Shown: piece by piece, positions 37,324-64,000 of the stretch
How the letters are laid out: each line of letters opens with the position of its first letter
Numbering within the stretch: position 1 is the first letter of the stretch
IMG/VR virus record: IMGVR_UViG_3300028840_008186
Coordinates: 1 to 64,000 of that record
Direction: 5' to 3' (one strand)
Origin: a virus
Lineage: Duplodnaviria; Caudoviricetes
DNA: 64,000 nt
Notes under the pieces: generated by a model
Told to the model about the DNA's origin: nothing
Seen by the model: the letters and a program-made list of their open reading frames with translations, nothing else
Databases searched by the model: none
Translations under genes and position numbers: made by a program

Positions 37324-37585
37324 CCTACTTCCTTTTGTGGTTCGAGTCTGCAGAACAGTATGTACCTGGGAAGGTGTAAGACTCTACTAGGACTATGTAC
37401 ATACCTGTGGGGTCAATACTCTGTGTGCACAGAATTTTGCGGTGGGTACCCCTGGCCTAGAGTAAGAAGGCGGAAAAACTCTTTAGAGAAGGGGGGTCGG
37501 ATTCTAAGGCTAAAACCTCCCGGACGGTACCGCCTCCCGGACGGGTAAAACCTAAAACCTAGTACTTAAGAAGGGAGAGAGAAAA

Positions 37586-38134
37586 ATGAGTAAAGGTAAA
37601 AGCGAGAAGGTAGAGAAGGTAGCGAAGGTCGGAGCGGGTAACGAAGCTTTAATCGAAGAGGCTAAAAGCCTAGGAGTTAAGGTAGACGCCCTACTTAGGG
37701 CGGGATTACTCGAAGAGGCGCGCGAGAAAATCGAGAGGGAAAAGACTCTAGCGAAGGCTAAGGAAGCCGCCCTAATCGTCGGTCGGTCGGCGAATCGATT
37801 CGCCCTATTTTATCGAAAGATAGGGGAGTCGCTAAAGGCGGGGCGTCTCCCGTCGGGAGTAGAGGATCGCGAGTATACCTTCGGTATACTCGGGCTTTAC
37901 CCGAAAGAGGGACGCGGGGGAGGAGTAAGTGACTGGGCTAATAAGGGCGCTTCTAAAGGAAACGCGCTATTCGCCGAAATCGTCCGGACCGGAAACGCCG
38001 AGGCCTTTCTAAAGGCCTACGATAAGGTCCGGACGGGCGAAGCGACCGAAGGGGTAAAAACCGGGATCGATTACCTAAAGGGATTCGCCCCCGAGATCCG
38101 TAAAGCCCTAGGATTCGCCCCCGAGAGTAAATAA
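37586..38134 (+). CDS. first early protein, function unknown; paralog of 40931-41365
   Basis: 182-aa ORF, purine-rich RBS, downstream hairpin; no Q/H/C. Confidence 0.85.
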   Translation: MSKGKSEKVEKVAKVGAGNEALIEEAKSLGVKVDALLRAGLLEEAREKIEREKTLAKAKEAALIVGRSANRFALFYRKIGESLKAGRLPSGVEDREYTFGILGLYPKEGRGGGVSDWANKGASKGNALFAEIVRTGNAEAFLKAYDKVRTGEATEGVKTGIDYLKGFAPEIRKALGFAPESK

Positions 38135-38146
38135 TAAACCTTAACC

Positions 38147-38169
38147 GGGAGGGGCGCTTCGCCCCTCCC
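38147..38169 (+). terminator. GC-rich hairpin without U-tract
   Basis: GGGAGGGGCG-CTT-CGCCCCTCCC. Confidence 0.5.
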
Positions 38170-38192
38170 CTACTACGAAGGAGGTCTGGAAA

Positions 38193-38351
38193 ATGGAATT
38201 AGTAGAACTTTTTGAAAGGTACGAATTTCCTAAGGACGAATGCTTCGGATTAGCCGACGACGAATTGGAGAACTATTACCTTCGGACCGAACGGGAAAAT
38301 ACCGGTCTGAAGATAGTGGAGCTCGATTATCCTAACGTAACCTGGGCTTAG
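38193..38351 (+). CDS. 52-aa acidic protein (absent from ORF track)
   Basis: AAGGAGGT RBS; MELVELFERYEFPKDECFGLADDELENYYLRTERENTGLKIVELDYPNVTWA. Confidence 0.7.
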   Translation: MELVELFERYEFPKDECFGLADDELENYYLRTERENTGLKIVELDYPNVTWA

Positions 38352-59097: not shown

Positions 59098-59751
59098 ATG
59101 GAAAAGAAAGATCTCAAGAAACTGGCTAAGGAAATGAACAAGGTTATGGGACTGGACCCGGCGATCGATCTCAAATTGGACGCCGAAAAACTCGAGGACT
59201 ATATCAAGAAAAGCCTAGATGAGGTGTATGATACTGATATCGAACCGGAGAACGAAGGGGATGATTGTTTTTCCGACGCAGCGGTGAAGACGCTGGCTGA
59301 ATTGGGGCACGAATACGCTCAGAAGTACCTCGAAAAGCAAGATGAAGGCGAAGAGGAGCCTGAGCCTGAGCCTGAAGAGAAGAAACCCTCCAGGCGCTCG
59401 AGCAGCAAGGGCAAGAAGAAGGAAGAGCCCAAGAAGGAAGAGAAACCTTCACGTAGCAAGGGCAGCAAGAAAGAGGAGCCGAAACAGTCCAAGAAATCTG
59501 ACAAAGAGCCTACGACACGAAAGATGACGCGGCTCGATTCTATTGTTCAGGGCATCGCCAACGCTCACAAACAAAAGAAGAATTGGGAGTTGGATGAAAT
59601 CACCAAAATTACCAATGAACTCTACTCCTCCAACGGCGGCAAAGAAAACCACCGTGAGGCGAAGTTCTTTGTGAATATCGCTATCCAATGTATGGCAGGC
59701 ATTGGAGTAGTAGAATTCAACAAAGAAAAAGAACATGTGAAGTTCGCCTAA
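59098..59751 (+). CDS. Lys/Glu-rich low-complexity protein
   Basis: GAGGAGG RBS; EPEPEP and SKGxKKEEPK repeats. Confidence 0.75.
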   Translation: MEKKDLKKLAKEMNKVMGLDPAIDLKLDAEKLEDYIKKSLDEVYDTDIEPENEGDDCFSDAAVKTLAELGHEYAQKYLEKQDEGEEEPEPEPEEKKPSRRSSSKGKKKEEPKKEEKPSRSKGSKKEEPKQSKKSDKEPTTRKMTRLDSIVQGIANAHKQKKNWELDEITKITNELYSSNGGKENHREAKFFVNIAIQCMAGIGVVEFNKEKEHVKFA

Positions 59752-60197
59752 TGGGACGTTGGAAAAGTATACCTGGATACCCTGGCTATTGGGCTTCGGC
59801 CCAAGGTCAGGTTCTAGGTAAAAAGGGCGGAGTTCTCAAGCCGAAGCTTAAGAAATATGCATATGTTGATTTGTATAGGAACAACAAGAGGGCGCGTAGG
59901 CCCATCCACCAATTGGTACTGGAGGTTTTCGGACCTCCTAGGCCTTCTCCTAACCACTTCCCGAATCACAAAGATGGTAACAAATTGAATAATAGTATTT
60001 CTAATCTTGAATGGCTCACTCCTAAAGAGAATATGAGACACGCTGTGAAAACTGGTCTGTTCGTTATCCCATCCGGTCCCAAGAATCATTGGCATGGAAA
60101 GGCTCAGTCCGCTTCTCATATTCTAAAAAGATCAGAAGCCATGAGAGGTAAGAAAAACCATCAGTATAAACATGGGAGGTATTCTGCTTATGAGTAA
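59751..60197 (+). CDS. free-standing NUMOD4-HNH homing endonuclease
   Basis: WKSIPGY.GY..S..G; IHQLV..F; NHKDGNKLNN...NLEW.T..EN..HA. Confidence 0.9.
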   Translation: MGRWKSIPGYPGYWASAQGQVLGKKGGVLKPKLKKYAYVDLYRNNKRARRPIHQLVLEVFGPPRPSPNHFPNHKDGNKLNNSISNLEWLTPKENMRHAVKTGLFVIPSGPKNHWHGKAQSASHILKRSEAMRGKKNHQYKHGRYSAYE

Positions 60198-61269
60198 GCA
60201 TGGTTTATCAGTGCGTGGTGATTGTTTATACTGCCCGCTTCCCCTCTCCATAGACCCATACAACAACTGCCTCGTAGACTGCCACCATTGTTATATGAGG
60301 CGGTTGAATCATGTATGGGGCAAAGAACTCAAGCCGTTGGATCCAGAAGCTTTGAGAAAGAAGCTCACCAACGGCTTGAAAAACAAGAATCCCAAATCCT
60401 CGATGGCCAACTGTCTCGCCAGAAAGAAAACTATACGGATTGGCAACAAGGCTGATGGCTTCCAACCGATCGAGGACGATCTGCATATCACGGCCCAAGT
60501 GATACAGATCTTGGAAGAACTGGAGTGGAGTTATGTTATCCAAACAAGATTCCTATCAAGAGTCTGGGAATTTGGCTCCGACTATCGAGACGCCCTCTCT
60601 CCAAGAAACGCCGTTATTCTTCCGATTATTAGTCCTGGCCTTGAGATGGACTGGGAGATCCTCGAGAGAAGAAGAACGGATCCGCCAAGGGTTAGACTGC
60701 GGATCCTCAAAGAGTTTCGAGAGCGCGGATTCCACGGCGGCGTCAATGGAGAGCCTTTCATTCCTGGGTATCATACGGTGCAGGATTTCGAGGACACGCT
60801 CAAAACGCTCAGGGACTATGGGATCGACCGGTACAACACATACAACTTACACTTGAATGATTACGTTCTGAAACGACTAAACGATATCAATTTGGATATC
60901 GAGAAGATTTGGACCATGAATCAGGACAAGAATTGGAAGCCGATCCAACAGCAGCTTTGCGATCTTGCGAAAAAACATAATATCATACTGGGCTGTCCCG
61001 ACTTTGTAAACACCGGACCTGACTGGAAGGAGGAGGCTAATACTTGTTGCGGCATAGACGTTCCGAATCCAAGCCGATTTAATACCCATTACTTCAAGAA
61101 GACTATGCAGGCCGGAGTCAAGGCCCCTAACGCTGTACTAACGCAGCATTGGGAGGGTATCGGGGAGTTTGAGGAGGCCTTGAAGATAGTCCAAGGGAAA
61201 CGATCCGATATGTATACAATGGCTGATGCTGGATTGGTTAAGAAGCCCAAGAAAGGATTGATAGTATAA
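60190..61269 (+). CDS. radical SAM enzyme (SPL-like type)
   Basis: IDPYNNCLVDCHHCY (CxxxCxxC); D.FQP.E; EPFIPG; CCG. Confidence 0.88.
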   Translation: MSKHGLSVRGDCLYCPLPLSIDPYNNCLVDCHHCYMRRLNHVWGKELKPLDPEALRKKLTNGLKNKNPKSSMANCLARKKTIRIGNKADGFQPIEDDLHITAQVIQILEELEWSYVIQTRFLSRVWEFGSDYRDALSPRNAVILPIISPGLEMDWEILERRRTDPPRVRLRILKEFRERGFHGGVNGEPFIPGYHTVQDFEDTLKTLRDYGIDRYNTYNLHLNDYVLKRLNDINLDIEKIWTMNQDKNWKPIQQQLCDLAKKHNIILGCPDFVNTGPDWKEEANTCCGIDVPNPSRFNTHYFKKTMQAGVKAPNAVLTQHWEGIGEFEEALKIVQGKRSDMYTMADAGLVKKPKKGLIV

Positions 61270-61439
61270 TGGAAACGTATTGGGAACAAGTACAGCAGTT
61301 GCATGATCAATTAACCCACGTTGCTATTTCTTGCTTAGGCAAGGATCCCTTCGATCGGGACAAAGCCAAGTTTACTATAGCGGTCCTCGATGGACCAATG
61401 GAAGGAGAAATTGTCACTGTTGAAATGAGGATAGTATGA
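61269..61439 (+). CDS. 56-aa hypothetical protein (absent from ORF track)
   Basis: TAATG and ATGA coupling at both ends; METYWEQVQQ... Confidence 0.6.
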   Translation: METYWEQVQQLHDQLTHVAISCLGKDPFDRDKAKFTIAVLDGPMEGEIVTVEMRIV

Positions 61440-62143
61440 AAACAAATACGATATTAGCTGGAGACGCTCAGATGATGAGCGAGGATTACATACCTGACGG
61501 TTCGATTGACTTTGTTTTGACGTCTCCTCCGTATGATGGTGCGAACACTCCGAAGGGCGCTGCTCCGAACTTATACCAGTACGGCTTTGAGTTGAGTCGG
61601 GTGTTGAAAGATGGGGGTGTTTGCGTCTTGGTCATACAGGACATAGTCCACAACGGCATCAAGCGCGGCCACTCCATTCGAATCCCGTCCTATTGGATAG
61701 ATCACACCAAGCTAAATCTTTGGGACGATTATATCTATTGGCGCGGAGGGCAGGAGGGGTATTGGTGGAAGAATCGGATCCGCAAAGACCACGACTATAT
61801 GTGGATCTTCGTCAACAATGCGAACAAACCTAAAACCTTCAACAAGATCCGCTACTCCAATCAGGGCTCTATCTTTGATTACCGAACCGAGAAGCGGAAG
61901 ACCAATTTGAGGCGTCACAAAAAAGAGAAAGGCAAGCTATACCCGGTTGCGTTTCCTTTCCAGTTGGCTGAGGATATGATCCGGATCTTCACCAAAAAGG
62001 ATGACTTGGTACTAGATCCTTTTTGCGGGTACGGAACGACTCTCGCCGCAGCGAAGGTTTTGAATAGACGGTACTTGGGAATAGAACTGTTGGAGCACGT
62101 AGCATCGATCGCTACCAAGCACCTGGAGGCTGGATTACTATGA
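61436..62143 (+). CDS. amino-DNA methyltransferase (N4-C/N6-A, beta order)
   Basis: TSPPY precedes LDPFCGYGTT; P.AFP. Confidence 0.9.
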   Translation: MKTNTILAGDAQMMSEDYIPDGSIDFVLTSPPYDGANTPKGAAPNLYQYGFELSRVLKDGGVCVLVIQDIVHNGIKRGHSIRIPSYWIDHTKLNLWDDYIYWRGGQEGYWWKNRIRKDHDYMWIFVNNANKPKTFNKIRYSNQGSIFDYRTEKRKTNLRRHKKEKGKLYPVAFPFQLAEDMIRIFTKKDDLVLDPFCGYGTTLAAAKVLNRRYLGIELLEHVASIATKHLEAGLL

Positions 62144-62961
62144 GTTTAGGACTGAGAAAAACTCCTCGGCTCTTGGACCAATGGAAATCCCTCGCCAATA
62201 TAATAAACAATCCTGTTGAGTATTGGGATTTCCCTACCACAATGCTCGCCTTTGCTAAATCTTTGAAGAACTCTCAGCTTTTGCTTATGGAAGGCGGCGT
62301 TGTGTTCAGGATAAGGGGAAAGCAAGCGACATTGATCAATTGGTTCGGGGAAGAGGAGGATATGCGAGCAGCGGTATTTGCTCTTCAATCTCAAGATATC
62401 AAAGTGAAAAGCCTTAATTGGGAGAAGACTATGTTCTTCCCGGACAAGGGAGCGAAGGTCAAAGAATTCATTGTCTATGGCTTATATGACTTTGATCTTT
62501 CTACACAATGCCACTCGAGCAAGACCCGTGAAACTTTGAGGAGGAAGCACCGCCAGGGCAAGAAACGGTACACCGTAGGACATAAGCTGCCAGCTAGAGA
62601 GAAGATGGATGAACTATTTGCTAAATGGGCTGAGGAAGCCAGCAAGCGTCATTTTATGGTTGTTAAAGGACATTACCAAGCCTATATCGATCTACTTTAC
62701 AAAGGCTTTGCTAGCTGTATTTGCTTTTGGGAAGGCGAGGAACTGATAGGCATATGCGGTTACGAGGTTTTCGGCAGCTGTGCGCAAATAACTTTGATGA
62801 AGAATCGAAAGGCGCACAGTTGTTTCCCAGTTTACTTTTGGGTTGCGTCTGTAGAGACTATATCCCGGCACTATAACAAAGTATTTTGCGGATCAACCGC
62901 CGAGGGGCTCAAGCAACAGTTAGGTTTCCTGCCTTATGATACCTATAAGTTGAAGCTTTAG
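62140..62961 (+). CDS. GNAT/FemAB/DUF2156-like acyl- or aminoacyl-transferase
   Basis: RETLRR...; ELF.KW; FWEGEELIG; GS...GLKQQLG resemble tandem GNAT fold. Confidence 0.45.
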   Translation: MSLGLRKTPRLLDQWKSLANIINNPVEYWDFPTTMLAFAKSLKNSQLLLMEGGVVFRIRGKQATLINWFGEEEDMRAAVFALQSQDIKVKSLNWEKTMFFPDKGAKVKEFIVYGLYDFDLSTQCHSSKTRETLRRKHRQGKKRYTVGHKLPAREKMDELFAKWAEEASKRHFMVVKGHYQAYIDLLYKGFASCICFWEGEELIGICGYEVFGSCAQITLMKNRKAHSCFPVYFWVASVETISRHYNKVFCGSTAEGLKQQLGFLPYDTYKLKL

Positions 62962-63064
62962 TATTTTTATCCTTAAAAATAAATATTTCCTTTATTAAAA
63001 ACCATTTTATAGCCCTAGTTCAAGTCGGATTAGGGCTATATTTATGGGCGGAAGGAGGGCCGGG

Positions 63065-63907
63065 ATGACGATTCGATTGATACCAAATACTCCAGTGGAG
63101 GAGTATACCGTTAAAGGGCAAACGGTTTTAGTCAAAAGGGAAGATCGCGCTACACCTTATCCCGGTCCTCCATTTTCTAAAGTACGGGGGTTGGTGCCCT
63201 ACCTATGGGATTTAAAAGAGTTGGGATTCACAACCATAGGCTACGTGGAAACCTCTGTCTCTATGGCCGGATGGGGAGTCGCGTGGGCGTGCTATCACCT
63301 CGGCCTCGAGTGCATTTTATGGGACCCTCAATACGAGAAGACGCCACCGCTGCTTCGCTACCATCGGAAACAATGGAAGAAGTTCAACCCTAAGATTCTA
63401 CCGATTAAGGCAGGGATGGCAGCGGTAAACTATAATATAGCAGCTAAAGAGGTTCGCAAGACACCGGATTGTTTCTTGCTTCCGCTCGGATTGCCTCTCC
63501 CTTATACCGTAATGGAAACTGCTAAGATCGCCCGGGAGACGTGGAATAGCAATGTATTTCGTACCGTAGTAACATCGGTCGGTAGTGGTACAATATGTGC
63601 GGGACTCTTGAAAGGACTCCCTGGAGATGTTAAGATATTCGGAGTAATGACCAGAACCGGTTCATCAAAACACAAAGCAAAAACGATCCATAAAAAAGCA
63701 CACATCCCTATCGGCGGTTTTTTAGGGAACAAAAACCTGAGTGTAGTAGATCCGGGATGGAGATATGCTGACCGAAGCTCTTGGCCGTGTCCTTTCCCAT
63801 GCCACCCTTGGTATGATCGGAAGGCGTGGCAATGGTTAGACCAATGGATGGGGATGCAGCAAATGGATGGGCCAGTAATGTTTTGGAATATCGGGAGGGT
63901 GCGATGA
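63065..63907 (+). CDS. PLP-dependent enzyme, fold type II (ACC deaminase/D-Cys desulfhydrase-like)
   Basis: VLVKRED...PPFSKVRG (PLP lysine); VGSGTICAG; YDRKAW; FWNIG. Confidence 0.85.
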   Translation: MTIRLIPNTPVEEYTVKGQTVLVKREDRATPYPGPPFSKVRGLVPYLWDLKELGFTTIGYVETSVSMAGWGVAWACYHLGLECILWDPQYEKTPPLLRYHRKQWKKFNPKILPIKAGMAAVNYNIAAKEVRKTPDCFLLPLGLPLPYTVMETAKIARETWNSNVFRTVVTSVGSGTICAGLLKGLPGDVKIFGVMTRTGSSKHKAKTIHKKAHIPIGGFLGNKNLSVVDPGWRYADRSSWPCPFPCHPWYDRKAWQWLDQWMGMQQMDGPVMFWNIGRVR

Positions 63908-64000
63908 ACCGCATAAGTACAGACAACTACCCGTTACTGAAAGCGTTCGCTGATGCGTTGAAGCTGACTATTTTAGAAGAGATCGACGTTGAAGGGAAGT
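63904..64000 (+). CDS. partial ORF running off the window
   Basis: ATGA coupling, GGGAGG RBS. Confidence 0.55.
   Translation, partial: MNRISTDNYPLLKAFADALKLTILEEIDVEGK

Follow-up and report, generated by a model that had tools for sequence, protein, structure and literature searches.

IMG/VR record IMGVR_UViG_3300028840_008186 is a single 92,221-bp viral contig of an uncultured phage (Duplodnaviria; Caudoviricetes), and the window analyzed here is its first 64 kb (64,000 nucleotides). We found that the replication genes of this phage enclose two paralogous radical S-adenosylmethionine (SAM) enzymes, rSAM1 and rSAM2, which flank a variable slot of accessory genes and are followed by a PCNA-like clamp, a short peptide and an MprF-like transferase. 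On balance, this gene set is probably a kinase-free, post-replicative DNA base hypermodification module situated in the replisome operon. The front half of the module lies in the window, where rSAM1 and three slot genes, encoding a beta-class DNA methyltransferase, a tandem GCN5-related N-acetyltransferase (GNAT) protein termed GNATl and a pyridoxal 5'-phosphate (PLP)-dependent enzyme, form a tightly packed plus-strand gene string (60190-63907) on the early/replication arm. An initial annotation of the window had listed a radical SAM, a methyltransferase, a GNAT-like and a PLP gene at 60190-64000, and all four are found there on the plus strand. They had been described as sitting together right after the replication module; they do sit together, but inside that module, with a DnaG-like primase and a DnaB-like helicase upstream and two clamps, PolA, a clamp loader, gp32, a RecA-like protein and a flap endonuclease (FEN) downstream.

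A five-gene core is conserved among related phages

Relatives were collected by an alignment-based scan of IMG/VR for rSAM1, which yielded 94 stretches encoding a relative, and 80 of these loci were kept for synteny, for which the proteins of this genome were compared with them by tblastn. The full stretch from rSAM2 to the clamp is covered in 55 of the 80 loci, and presence counts of the core genes were taken from these 55. Absence searches were carried out on 20 related phage records, nine of which are at least 90% complete. The gene order was fixed over the 80 loci: primase, helicase, rSAM1, slot, rSAM2, a 277-amino-acid (aa) protein, clamp and PolA. By tblastn, rSAM2 was present in 76 of the 80 loci, the 277-aa protein in 66 and the PLP enzyme in 44; the methyltransferase was found in nine, GNATl in two, dCMP deaminase in one and the ThyA-like protein in none. 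Among the 55 covered loci, the PCNA-like clamp and the core transferase were each present in all 55, the peptide in 54 and the PLP enzyme in 32. The core consists of rSAM1, rSAM2, the PCNA-like clamp, the ~50-aa peptide and the MprF-like transferase, and the genes of the initial annotation correspond to rSAM1 plus the variable slot.

The 277-aa protein adopts, in its predicted structure, a PCNA-like two-domain clamp fold (predicted local distance difference test score [pLDDT] 83.7; Foldseek 4.5e-10). It was also considered as a divergent amino-acid:DNA transferase (ADDT) and rejected as such, because hhalign against M6 gp51 gave 0.1%, a profile search of the PDB returned nothing and the fold is PCNA-like. 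The phage has two sliding-clamp-like genes, the second of which encodes a beta-clamp-like protein of 366 aa. Homologs of the 268-aa core transferase were detected in 61 of the 80 loci; 19 of 33 members match Pfam LPG_synthase_C (best 1.3e-6), and the profile matches the DUF2156 structure 2hqy at 3.6e-4.

The 53-aa core peptide has an N-terminal head that is invariant at 10 positions (40 aligned sequences), followed by a basic linker and a C-terminal G-[LF]-[LF]-acidic motif, which in our reading resembles clamp-binding tails. Prediction of a complex between residues 1-232 of the PCNA-like protein and the peptide gave a score of 0.01, which counts neither for nor against binding. Read in a different frame, the conserved "NGRKK" tail of the PCNA-like open reading frame (ORF) corresponds to the invariant head of the peptide; the ORFs share 98 nucleotides here (68351-68448) and are separate in many relatives.

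The phage is distant from every cultured phage. Among 50,697 phage records, nothing is more than ~25% identical to its PolA, and at the DNA level the region matched no phage record. When viral contigs were scanned with the single GNATl or rSAM1 protein, nothing was found, whereas alignment-based scans gave matches. rSAM1 was also used to scan 185,579 species genomes, which gave four loci, all of them on contigs of metagenome-assembled genomes that either show the same phage synteny or are too short to judge, so that no host can be inferred from them.

The radical SAM pair is related to M6 gp53

To our knowledge, all characterized thymidine hypermodifications start from 5-hydroxymethyl-2'-deoxyuridine (5-hmdU), a DNA kinase and an amino-acid or polyamine transferase. 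In the pathway of phage M6 to 5-(2-aminoethyl)-2'-deoxyuridine (5-NedU), gp58 is the dUMP hydroxymethylase, gp54/gp55 the 5-hmdU kinase, gp51 the glycine:DNA transferase, gp53 a radical SAM isomerase and gp52 a PLP decarboxylase, and the substrates of gp52 and gp53 are amino acids linked to thymine in DNA (PMC8989533).

The rSAM1 protein matches phrog_13321 (4.5e-12) and the NCBIfam family rSAM_PA0069 (5.7e-12), together with Pfam Radical_SAM at an E value of 7.7e-5 (23.4 bits; cut-off 29.5). It has 530 homologs at E ≤ 1e-3, the best 120 of which are 52-100% identical. The two radical SAM enzymes are paralogs (hhalign probability 98.6%, 5.7e-16). Against M6 gp53, hhalign gave 93.9% (1.6e-7) for rSAM1 and 91.0% for rSAM2, and the top NCBIfam families are common to all three proteins. 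They are not gp53 orthologs, since blastp found only 23% identity over 200 aa (2e-4); true gp53 orthologs, with 40-58% identity, are present in other viral contigs. Additional cysteines, among them a C-terminal CC pair, are invariant in both paralogs, which would fit a second cluster such as that reported for gp53 (PMC8989533). By these comparisons, the pair appears to share a sub-branch with M6 gp53 rather than with true spore photoproduct lyases (SPLs). The initial annotation had raised a grouping with true SPLs as the outcome that would speak against a modification pathway; no SplB model of NCBIfam and no SPL chain of the PDB (E ≤ 1 or E ≤ 10) was matched by either enzyme.

The rSAM2 ORFs of several relatives (L027, L048, L076 and L079) are 612-622 aa long, compared with the usual ~470 aa, which suggests inteins inside rSAM2. 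A radical SAM family with inteins, Rv2578c, is also represented in NCBIfam.

The PLP enzyme is a homolog of the M6 decarboxylase gp52

The PLP enzyme matches Pfam PALP (5.3e-12), and its best family is the phage-only phrog_7093 (1.5e-46). Compared with M6 gp52, it is 36.2% identical over 95% of its length by tblastn (8e-45; blastp 3.9e-50). A tblastn search with the enzyme matched 66 phage records, 52 of them Pseudomonas phages, and in every case the match is a gp52-type gene of an M6-like or other phage. In M6, gp52 removes the carboxyl group from a glycine that is C-linked to thymine in DNA, with K36 as its aldimine lysine (PMC8989533), and the equivalent lysine, in an FSKxRG motif, was invariant in 12 of 12 aligned sequences. 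None of the NCBIfam metabolic families (1-aminocyclopropane-1-carboxylate [ACC] deaminase, D-cysteine desulfhydrase and threonine dehydratase) matched at E ≤ 0.01, and the enzyme groups with M6 gp52 and not with the ACC deaminases named as a competing assignment in the initial annotation. We therefore refer to it as a gp52-type decarboxylase homolog, with decarboxylation as its predicted activity.

GNATl has an aminoacyl-tRNA transferase fold and recurs beside PLP genes

By sequence, GNATl was matched weakly (Acetyltransf_6, E value 0.026), and among 57 aligned members seven touch Acetyltransf_6 and one touches LPG_synthase_C. Its AlphaFold2 model has a pLDDT of 95.5. Foldseek placed this model closest to the MprF C-terminal domain, to alanyl- and lysyl-phosphatidylglycerol synthases, to FemX and to two tRNA-dependent peptide synthases, Sbb17 and Sba18 (1e-10 to 2.5e-7, with MprF, FemX and Sbb17 at 1e-10 to 4e-8; template modeling score 0.54-0.67). 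As modeled, GNATl has the FemX/MprF aminoacyl-tRNA-transferase fold, with aminoacyl-tRNA as its putative donor.

GNATl has 88 homologs among 1.84 billion representatives. A scan of IMG/VR found seven further GNATl loci, six of which adjoin a gp52-type PLP gene. Four of them (L088, L091, L092 and L093) also adjoin a gp53 ortholog (40-58% identity), at most 13 kb from an ADDT; the ADDT is present in all four records and lies directly adjacent to the cluster in three. In the seventh locus (L089:9188-12434), which belongs to another phage type, GNATl lies between a short-chain dehydrogenase and a class-III aminotransferase, beside a thymidylate-kinase-like P-loop gene and Pol III alpha, and this cassette may be another base-modification cassette. 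The GNATl family is a recurrent partner of amine-generating PLP enzymes in DNA-modification neighborhoods. It recurs beside PLP enzymes both here and in M6-type clusters, and its most economical role would likely be aminoacylation of the primary amine left by decarboxylation. GNATl-type ORFs of M6-type clusters may already be drawn, unannotated, in Figure 2 and Figure S15 of PMC8989533.

The slot between rSAM1 and rSAM2 carries variable tailoring genes

The slot was surveyed with 114 plus-strand ORFs of at least 60 aa from the relatives and seven ORFs of this phage, which were clustered, and Pfam was run on cluster representatives. The slot of this phage holds a beta-class methyltransferase, GNATl, the gp52-type PLP enzyme, dCMP deaminase and small proteins. 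The PLP enzyme formed the largest cluster listed here (39, including the copy of this phage). The others were a weakly matched D12-methylase-like protein (15), HINT/DUF559 selfish elements of the intein or homing-endonuclease kind (13 ORFs; for example L006:11895-13130), an aldo-keto reductase (11), a 136-aa protein without an assigned family (8), an FAD/DAO oxidoreductase (2) and an Amidoligase_2 protein (2). Selfish elements apart, the slot enzymes are predicted from their families to act on alpha-amino acids or amines. Such a pattern would be expected of a core that leaves its substrate with an amino-acid-like group.

The methyltransferase of this phage matches Pfam N6_N4_Mtase (1.3e-31), phrog_67 (9e-38) and NCBIfam CcrM (3.4e-15). 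In one relative (L009), the slot contains a GNATl homolog, then an N6_N4 methyltransferase (3.6e-25) and then the PLP enzyme, a trio that matches that of this phage. Particular to this phage are the GNATl and methyltransferase pair, the dCMP deaminase, a nucleotidyltransferase (NTase)-fold protein and a nearby ThyA-like gene.

The known entry enzymes were not found

Pfam accessions were taken from the M6 proteins: ADDT/aGPT-Pplase2 (PF18724), the 5-hmdU kinase (PF18748) and its helical partner (PF18723). The corresponding models ADDT, HMUDK_HMUD1 and HMUDK_hel were searched against all six frames of the 92-kb genome and matched nothing at E ≤ 10; likewise, gp51, gp54 and gp55 had no blastp match at E ≤ 0.01. 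ADDT was also found in none of the 20 related records. As a positive control, the same ADDT search succeeded in four of five M6-type records. Because neither the kinase nor ADDT was found, a different entry route is proposed here, and not the M6/ViI/PaMx11 pathway with extra enzymes.

The initial annotation had left the kinase, the transferase, dUMP hydroxymethylase and dCMP deaminase to be sought beyond the window. The dCMP deaminase gene is indeed located just past the window end (Table 1), and the kinase and transferase are the part of that expectation which failed. For dUMP hydroxymethylase the outcome was mixed: a ThyA-like gene is present, but it has homologs in only 2 of the 20 related records, and its sequence is compatible with either a synthase or a hydroxymethylase. 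The catalytic cysteine, an RSxD motif and a dUMP-type asparagine are retained in the ThyA-like protein, and its best model is the archaeal thymidylate synthase (1.5e-27, below the cut-off).

A CA/TG-free island marks the genome

The CA/TG-free island pointed out in the initial annotation is real and an extreme outlier. At window positions 37450..38350, it contains 12 CA/TG per 900 bp, compared with a genome mean of 106.5 (standard deviation [sd] 11.5). The three longest CA/TG-free runs of the genome (343, 253 and 134 bp) are all inside the island, and no other run exceeds 53 bp. For alpha-dapT, a preference for TG has been reported (PMC13458397); for M6 and ViI, no motifs had been established at the time of PMC5889632. 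CA/TG steps are the probable site of the mark, although avoidance does not tell which of the four bases of the step is involved. Thymine is a candidate target base.

Gene layout and neighboring genes

The features of the module and its surroundings are listed in Table 1. Stop and start codons overlap at 61269, 61436-61439 and 62140-62143. Two small Cys-rich, zinc-ribbon-like ORFs lie inside the module, the one that crosses the window end and another at genome 67192-67350; neither has a family match or a tblastn match in the relatives. A scan for promoters and terminators was near the shuffle expectation (15 versus 11.5, sd 3.4, and 13 versus 8.7, sd 3.1, respectively).

Table 1. Genes of the module and its neighborhood, numbered from the first base of the record
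Feature	Position	Strand	Remarks
rSAM1, radical SAM enzyme, core gene	60190..61269	+	CX3CX2C plus four further invariant Cys (alignment)
56-aa ORF	61269..61439	+	Translation coupled to both neighboring genes; matches nothing in Pfam or PHROG, nor by tblastn in the 80 related loci
Beta-class N6/N4 DNA methyltransferase, slot gene	61436..62143	+	SPPY near N terminus, then DPFCGYGTT
GNATl, tandem-GNAT protein, slot gene	62140..62961	+	Fold of aminoacyl-tRNA-dependent transferases
PLP-dependent enzyme, M6 gp52 homolog, slot gene	63044..63907	+	Pfam PALP, phrog_7093
72-aa Cys-rich small ORF	genome 63904-64122 (window part 63904..64000)	+	Coupled to PLP gene by ATGA overlap; passes window end
dCMP deaminase	genome 64122-64604	+	Past window end
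NTase-fold protein (154 aa)	genome 64594-65058	+	
172-aa protein	genome 65070-65588	+	No family match
rSAM2, core gene	genome 65590-66993	+	Paralog of rSAM1
PCNA-like clamp (277 aa, u277), core gene	genome 67615-68448	+	
53-aa peptide with invariant head, core gene	genome 68351-68512	+	
MprF-C/DUF2156-like transferase (268 aa), core gene	genome 68445-69251	+	
Beta-clamp-like protein (366 aa)	genome 69164-70264	+	DNA_pol3_beta only at E 0.0025
tRNA-Gly(CCC)	genome 70271-70346	+	
ThyA-like protein (240 aa)	genome 70365-71086	+	
PolA	genome 72228-73694	+	

Upstream of rSAM1, an HNH/NUMOD4 homing-endonuclease gene (window 59688-60197; HNH_3 3e-11; phrog_59 8.5e-34) ends 8 bp into the rSAM1 start. 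In M6-like phages, HNH genes also adjoin the gp52 homolog, according to the feature names of the records. Near the right end of the genome (87151-88549) are a glycosyltransferase-like gene (phrog_1962 2.5e-9) and a sulfotransferase gene (Sulfotransfer_3 4.5e-8).

Discussion

In the mechanism that we propose, an amino acid would enter from a charged tRNA via the core transferase, for which Mu Mom on adenine offers a precedent. The two gp53-related radical SAM enzymes would forge or rearrange the link, which would leave an alpha-amino acid with a free amine on the base. The PLP enzyme would then decarboxylate the adduct to an aminoalkyl group, and GNATl, as the second transferase, would aminoacylate that amine from aminoacyl-tRNA. 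The methyltransferase would either methylate the adduct or be an ordinary DNA methylase. A 5-hmdU kinase and an ADDT would not be needed on this route. A more elaborate version, which we put forward tentatively and regard as doubtful, would be a clamp-riding, tRNA-fed radical SAM assembly line for peptide-like base side chains that uses no 5-hydroxymethyl-pyrimidine, kinase or ADDT. In this phage, two aminoacyl transfers around a decarboxylation, perhaps with N-methylation, would give an aminoacyl-aminoalkyl ("dipeptide-like") base at CA/TG, with the invariant-head peptide acting as a carrier or cofactor tethered to the clamp.

The closest known system is that of M6. The two share a gp52 homolog with its lysine kept, radical SAM enzymes of the same sub-branch, a cluster beside the polymerase and tailoring genes that vary combinatorially. 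They differ in that the phage analyzed here has no kinase or ADDT that could be found, has a pair of radical SAM paralogs in place of one isomerase, adds a clamp, a peptide and tRNA-type transferases, and carries a ThyA-like gene that is not conserved in its clade. The profile comparison with the M6 enzymes proposed in the initial annotation thus bore out for gp52, whereas the radical SAM enzymes turned out to be distant gp53 relatives and not orthologs. The "related, possibly new chemistry" that it had envisaged was right in kind, as M6-related DNA hypermodification with an aminoacyl transferase, and did not hold as the M6/ViI/PaMx11 pathway plus extras. Its "added acyl/aminoacyl transferase" fared well with respect to the transferase fold of GNATl and the relatives in M6-type clusters. 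The interpretation as a whole fell short on the entry chemistry and on the extent of the system.

Precedents for the transferases come from several sources. Mu Mom is a GNAT that moves glycine from Gly-tRNAGly to the N6 of adenine in duplex DNA (PMC13219725). As described, it is like the present system in its GNAT-superfamily fold and in having a charged tRNA as the likely amino-acid donor for DNA modification, but it is one enzyme with one GNAT domain and works without a radical SAM or PLP partner, whereas GNATl is a tandem-GNAT protein of the FemX/MprF type. Mom was not among the 50 listed Foldseek matches of GNATl. FemX, MprF-C and Sbb17 share the GNATl fold, and the 268-aa core protein has sub-threshold LPG_synthase_C matches; in contrast to these enzymes, the phage proteins have no membrane domain and are encoded among replication genes. 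In PaMx11, the gp48 acetyltransferase caps the amine of 5-aminomethyl-2'-deoxyuridine (5-NmdU) (PMC8989533). GNATl would likewise be a GNAT-superfamily enzyme that acylates a primary amine exposed on a modified base, except that its donor would be aminoacyl-tRNA and not acetyl-CoA, and its product an aminoacyl (peptide-like) adduct.

Several alternatives were weighed. One that we regard as unlikely is scaffold-peptide chemistry similar to that of ribosomally synthesized and post-translationally modified peptides or pearlins, in which the transferase loads the peptide head, radical SAM, PLP, FAD and reductase enzymes remodel it, and the product is a peptide or a released small molecule. Radical SAM enzymes and aminoacyl-tRNA transferases commonly work on peptides. 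FemX-fold enzymes, which head the Foldseek match list with others, acylate peptide amines, and the peptide, with its 10 invariant positions, occurs together with the transferase in 54 of the 55 covered loci. This alternative is harder to reconcile with a module that always lies between helicase and polymerase and has a PCNA-like clamp of its own. Moreover, the closest characterized relatives of the PLP enzyme and of both radical SAM enzymes act on DNA, and GNATl relatives occur in M6-type DNA clusters without the peptide, which was found in 0 of 5 M6-type loci. Even smaller is the chance that there is no pathway at all and that the genes are SPL-like repair enzymes for UV-damaged packed DNA, an orphan anti-restriction methyltransferase and unrelated PLP and GNAT auxiliary metabolic genes. 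Some rSAM1 homologs bear the Joint Genome Institute name "DNA repair photolyase", and the position of the methyltransferase varies. However, the profiles of rSAM1 and rSAM2 match no SPL chain of the PDB, and the five-gene core is found in all or nearly all covered loci. In addition, the PLP enzyme is a gp52 homolog that repeatedly adjoins GNATl, and the slot resembles a tailoring set. SplB is itself a radical SAM enzyme working on thymine in DNA, and homologs carry its COG-style name; the phage gene differs in being accompanied by a paralog and a set of tailoring genes.

Two further alternatives draw on the nucleotide-metabolism genes near the module. The ordinary M6/ViI thymidine route, in which the ThyA-like protein makes 5-hmdUMP and the kinase and ADDT are either too divergent to be recognized or encoded in the unsequenced part, is in our view very improbable. 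It would account for the dCMP deaminase and ThyA-like genes that flank the cluster, it is helped by the ~87% completeness of the genome (CheckV), and the NTase-fold protein and unassigned proteins of the slot could activate the base in another way. It is opposed by the lack of any match to ADDT or to both kinase families, by the absence of ADDT from all 20 relatives, including the nine most complete, although the search works in M6-type records, by the presence of ThyA in only two of these relatives, and by the near-zero hhalign probability between the 277-aa protein and gp51. We give comparably little credence to modification of the nucleotide pool, in which the radical SAM and PLP enzymes act on free deoxynucleoside mono- or triphosphates that the polymerase incorporates. 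The dCMP deaminase and NTase fold in the slot, the ThyA-like gene nearby and the position of the module next to the polymerase would suit such a scheme. Nevertheless, gp52 and gp53 act on DNA, the deaminase and the ThyA-like gene are phage-specific by their counts over the 80 loci, and a dedicated clamp better suits duplex DNA.

A number of observations weigh against a kinase-free, post-replicative module. The base chemistry and the target base are deduced from sequence for an uncultured phage, of whose genome the remaining 13% is unseen. The rSAM1 and GNATl proteins occur in 0 cultured phages among the 50,697 records (tblastn), and rSAM2 has two weak partial matches there. Neither radical SAM profile matches any PDB chain, SPL included (E ≤ 1 or E ≤ 10). 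The core transferase of this phage itself scores 24.1 bits against a cut-off of 27.5, so that its assignment leans on this sub-threshold match and one PDB match. The search for Tet_JBP, which found none in 21 records, is uninformative, as its controls gave no match either. Methyltransferases stand at varied positions (9/80 loci), and those of this phage and L009, considered as orthologs, were rejected as such since they share 35% identity over 62 residues in the SAM-binding region only. The tRNA-Gly(CCC), the sole tRNA in the genome, which lies between the clamp and the ThyA-like gene, was considered as a sign of a glycine donor and rejected, because only two of the 60 loci scanned carry a tRNA (Leu and Met), so that the feature is not recurrent. 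The PLP gene is missing from 23 of the 55 covered relatives, and decarboxylation would therefore be optional. Finally, acyl transfer from tRNA would use up the carboxyl group on which the decarboxylase depends. The sequence of reactions given above is accordingly tentative, and the core transferase may have DNA, the peptide or another molecule as its true acceptor. With the free carboxylate lost, either the radical steps would re-route the linkage or the core transferase would act on the peptide and not on DNA.

The published metagenome survey took the 5-hmdU kinase as its anchor (PMC8989533), and it would for that reason not have retrieved a kinase-free clade. In a literature search that had most subscription journals outside its reach, we found no paper describing a DNA-modification module composed of a radical SAM pair, a clamp and a tRNA-type transferase. 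The module is widespread, as seen from the 530 rSAM1 homologs, and it brings together gp52-type and gp53-related enzymes without a known entry enzyme. It points to an oxygen-independent start of DNA base decoration that would be driven by radical enzymes and possibly by tRNA. New base chemistries of this kind bear on the evasion of restriction and CRISPR, on enzymatic DNA labeling and on the reading of metagenomic phage DNA.

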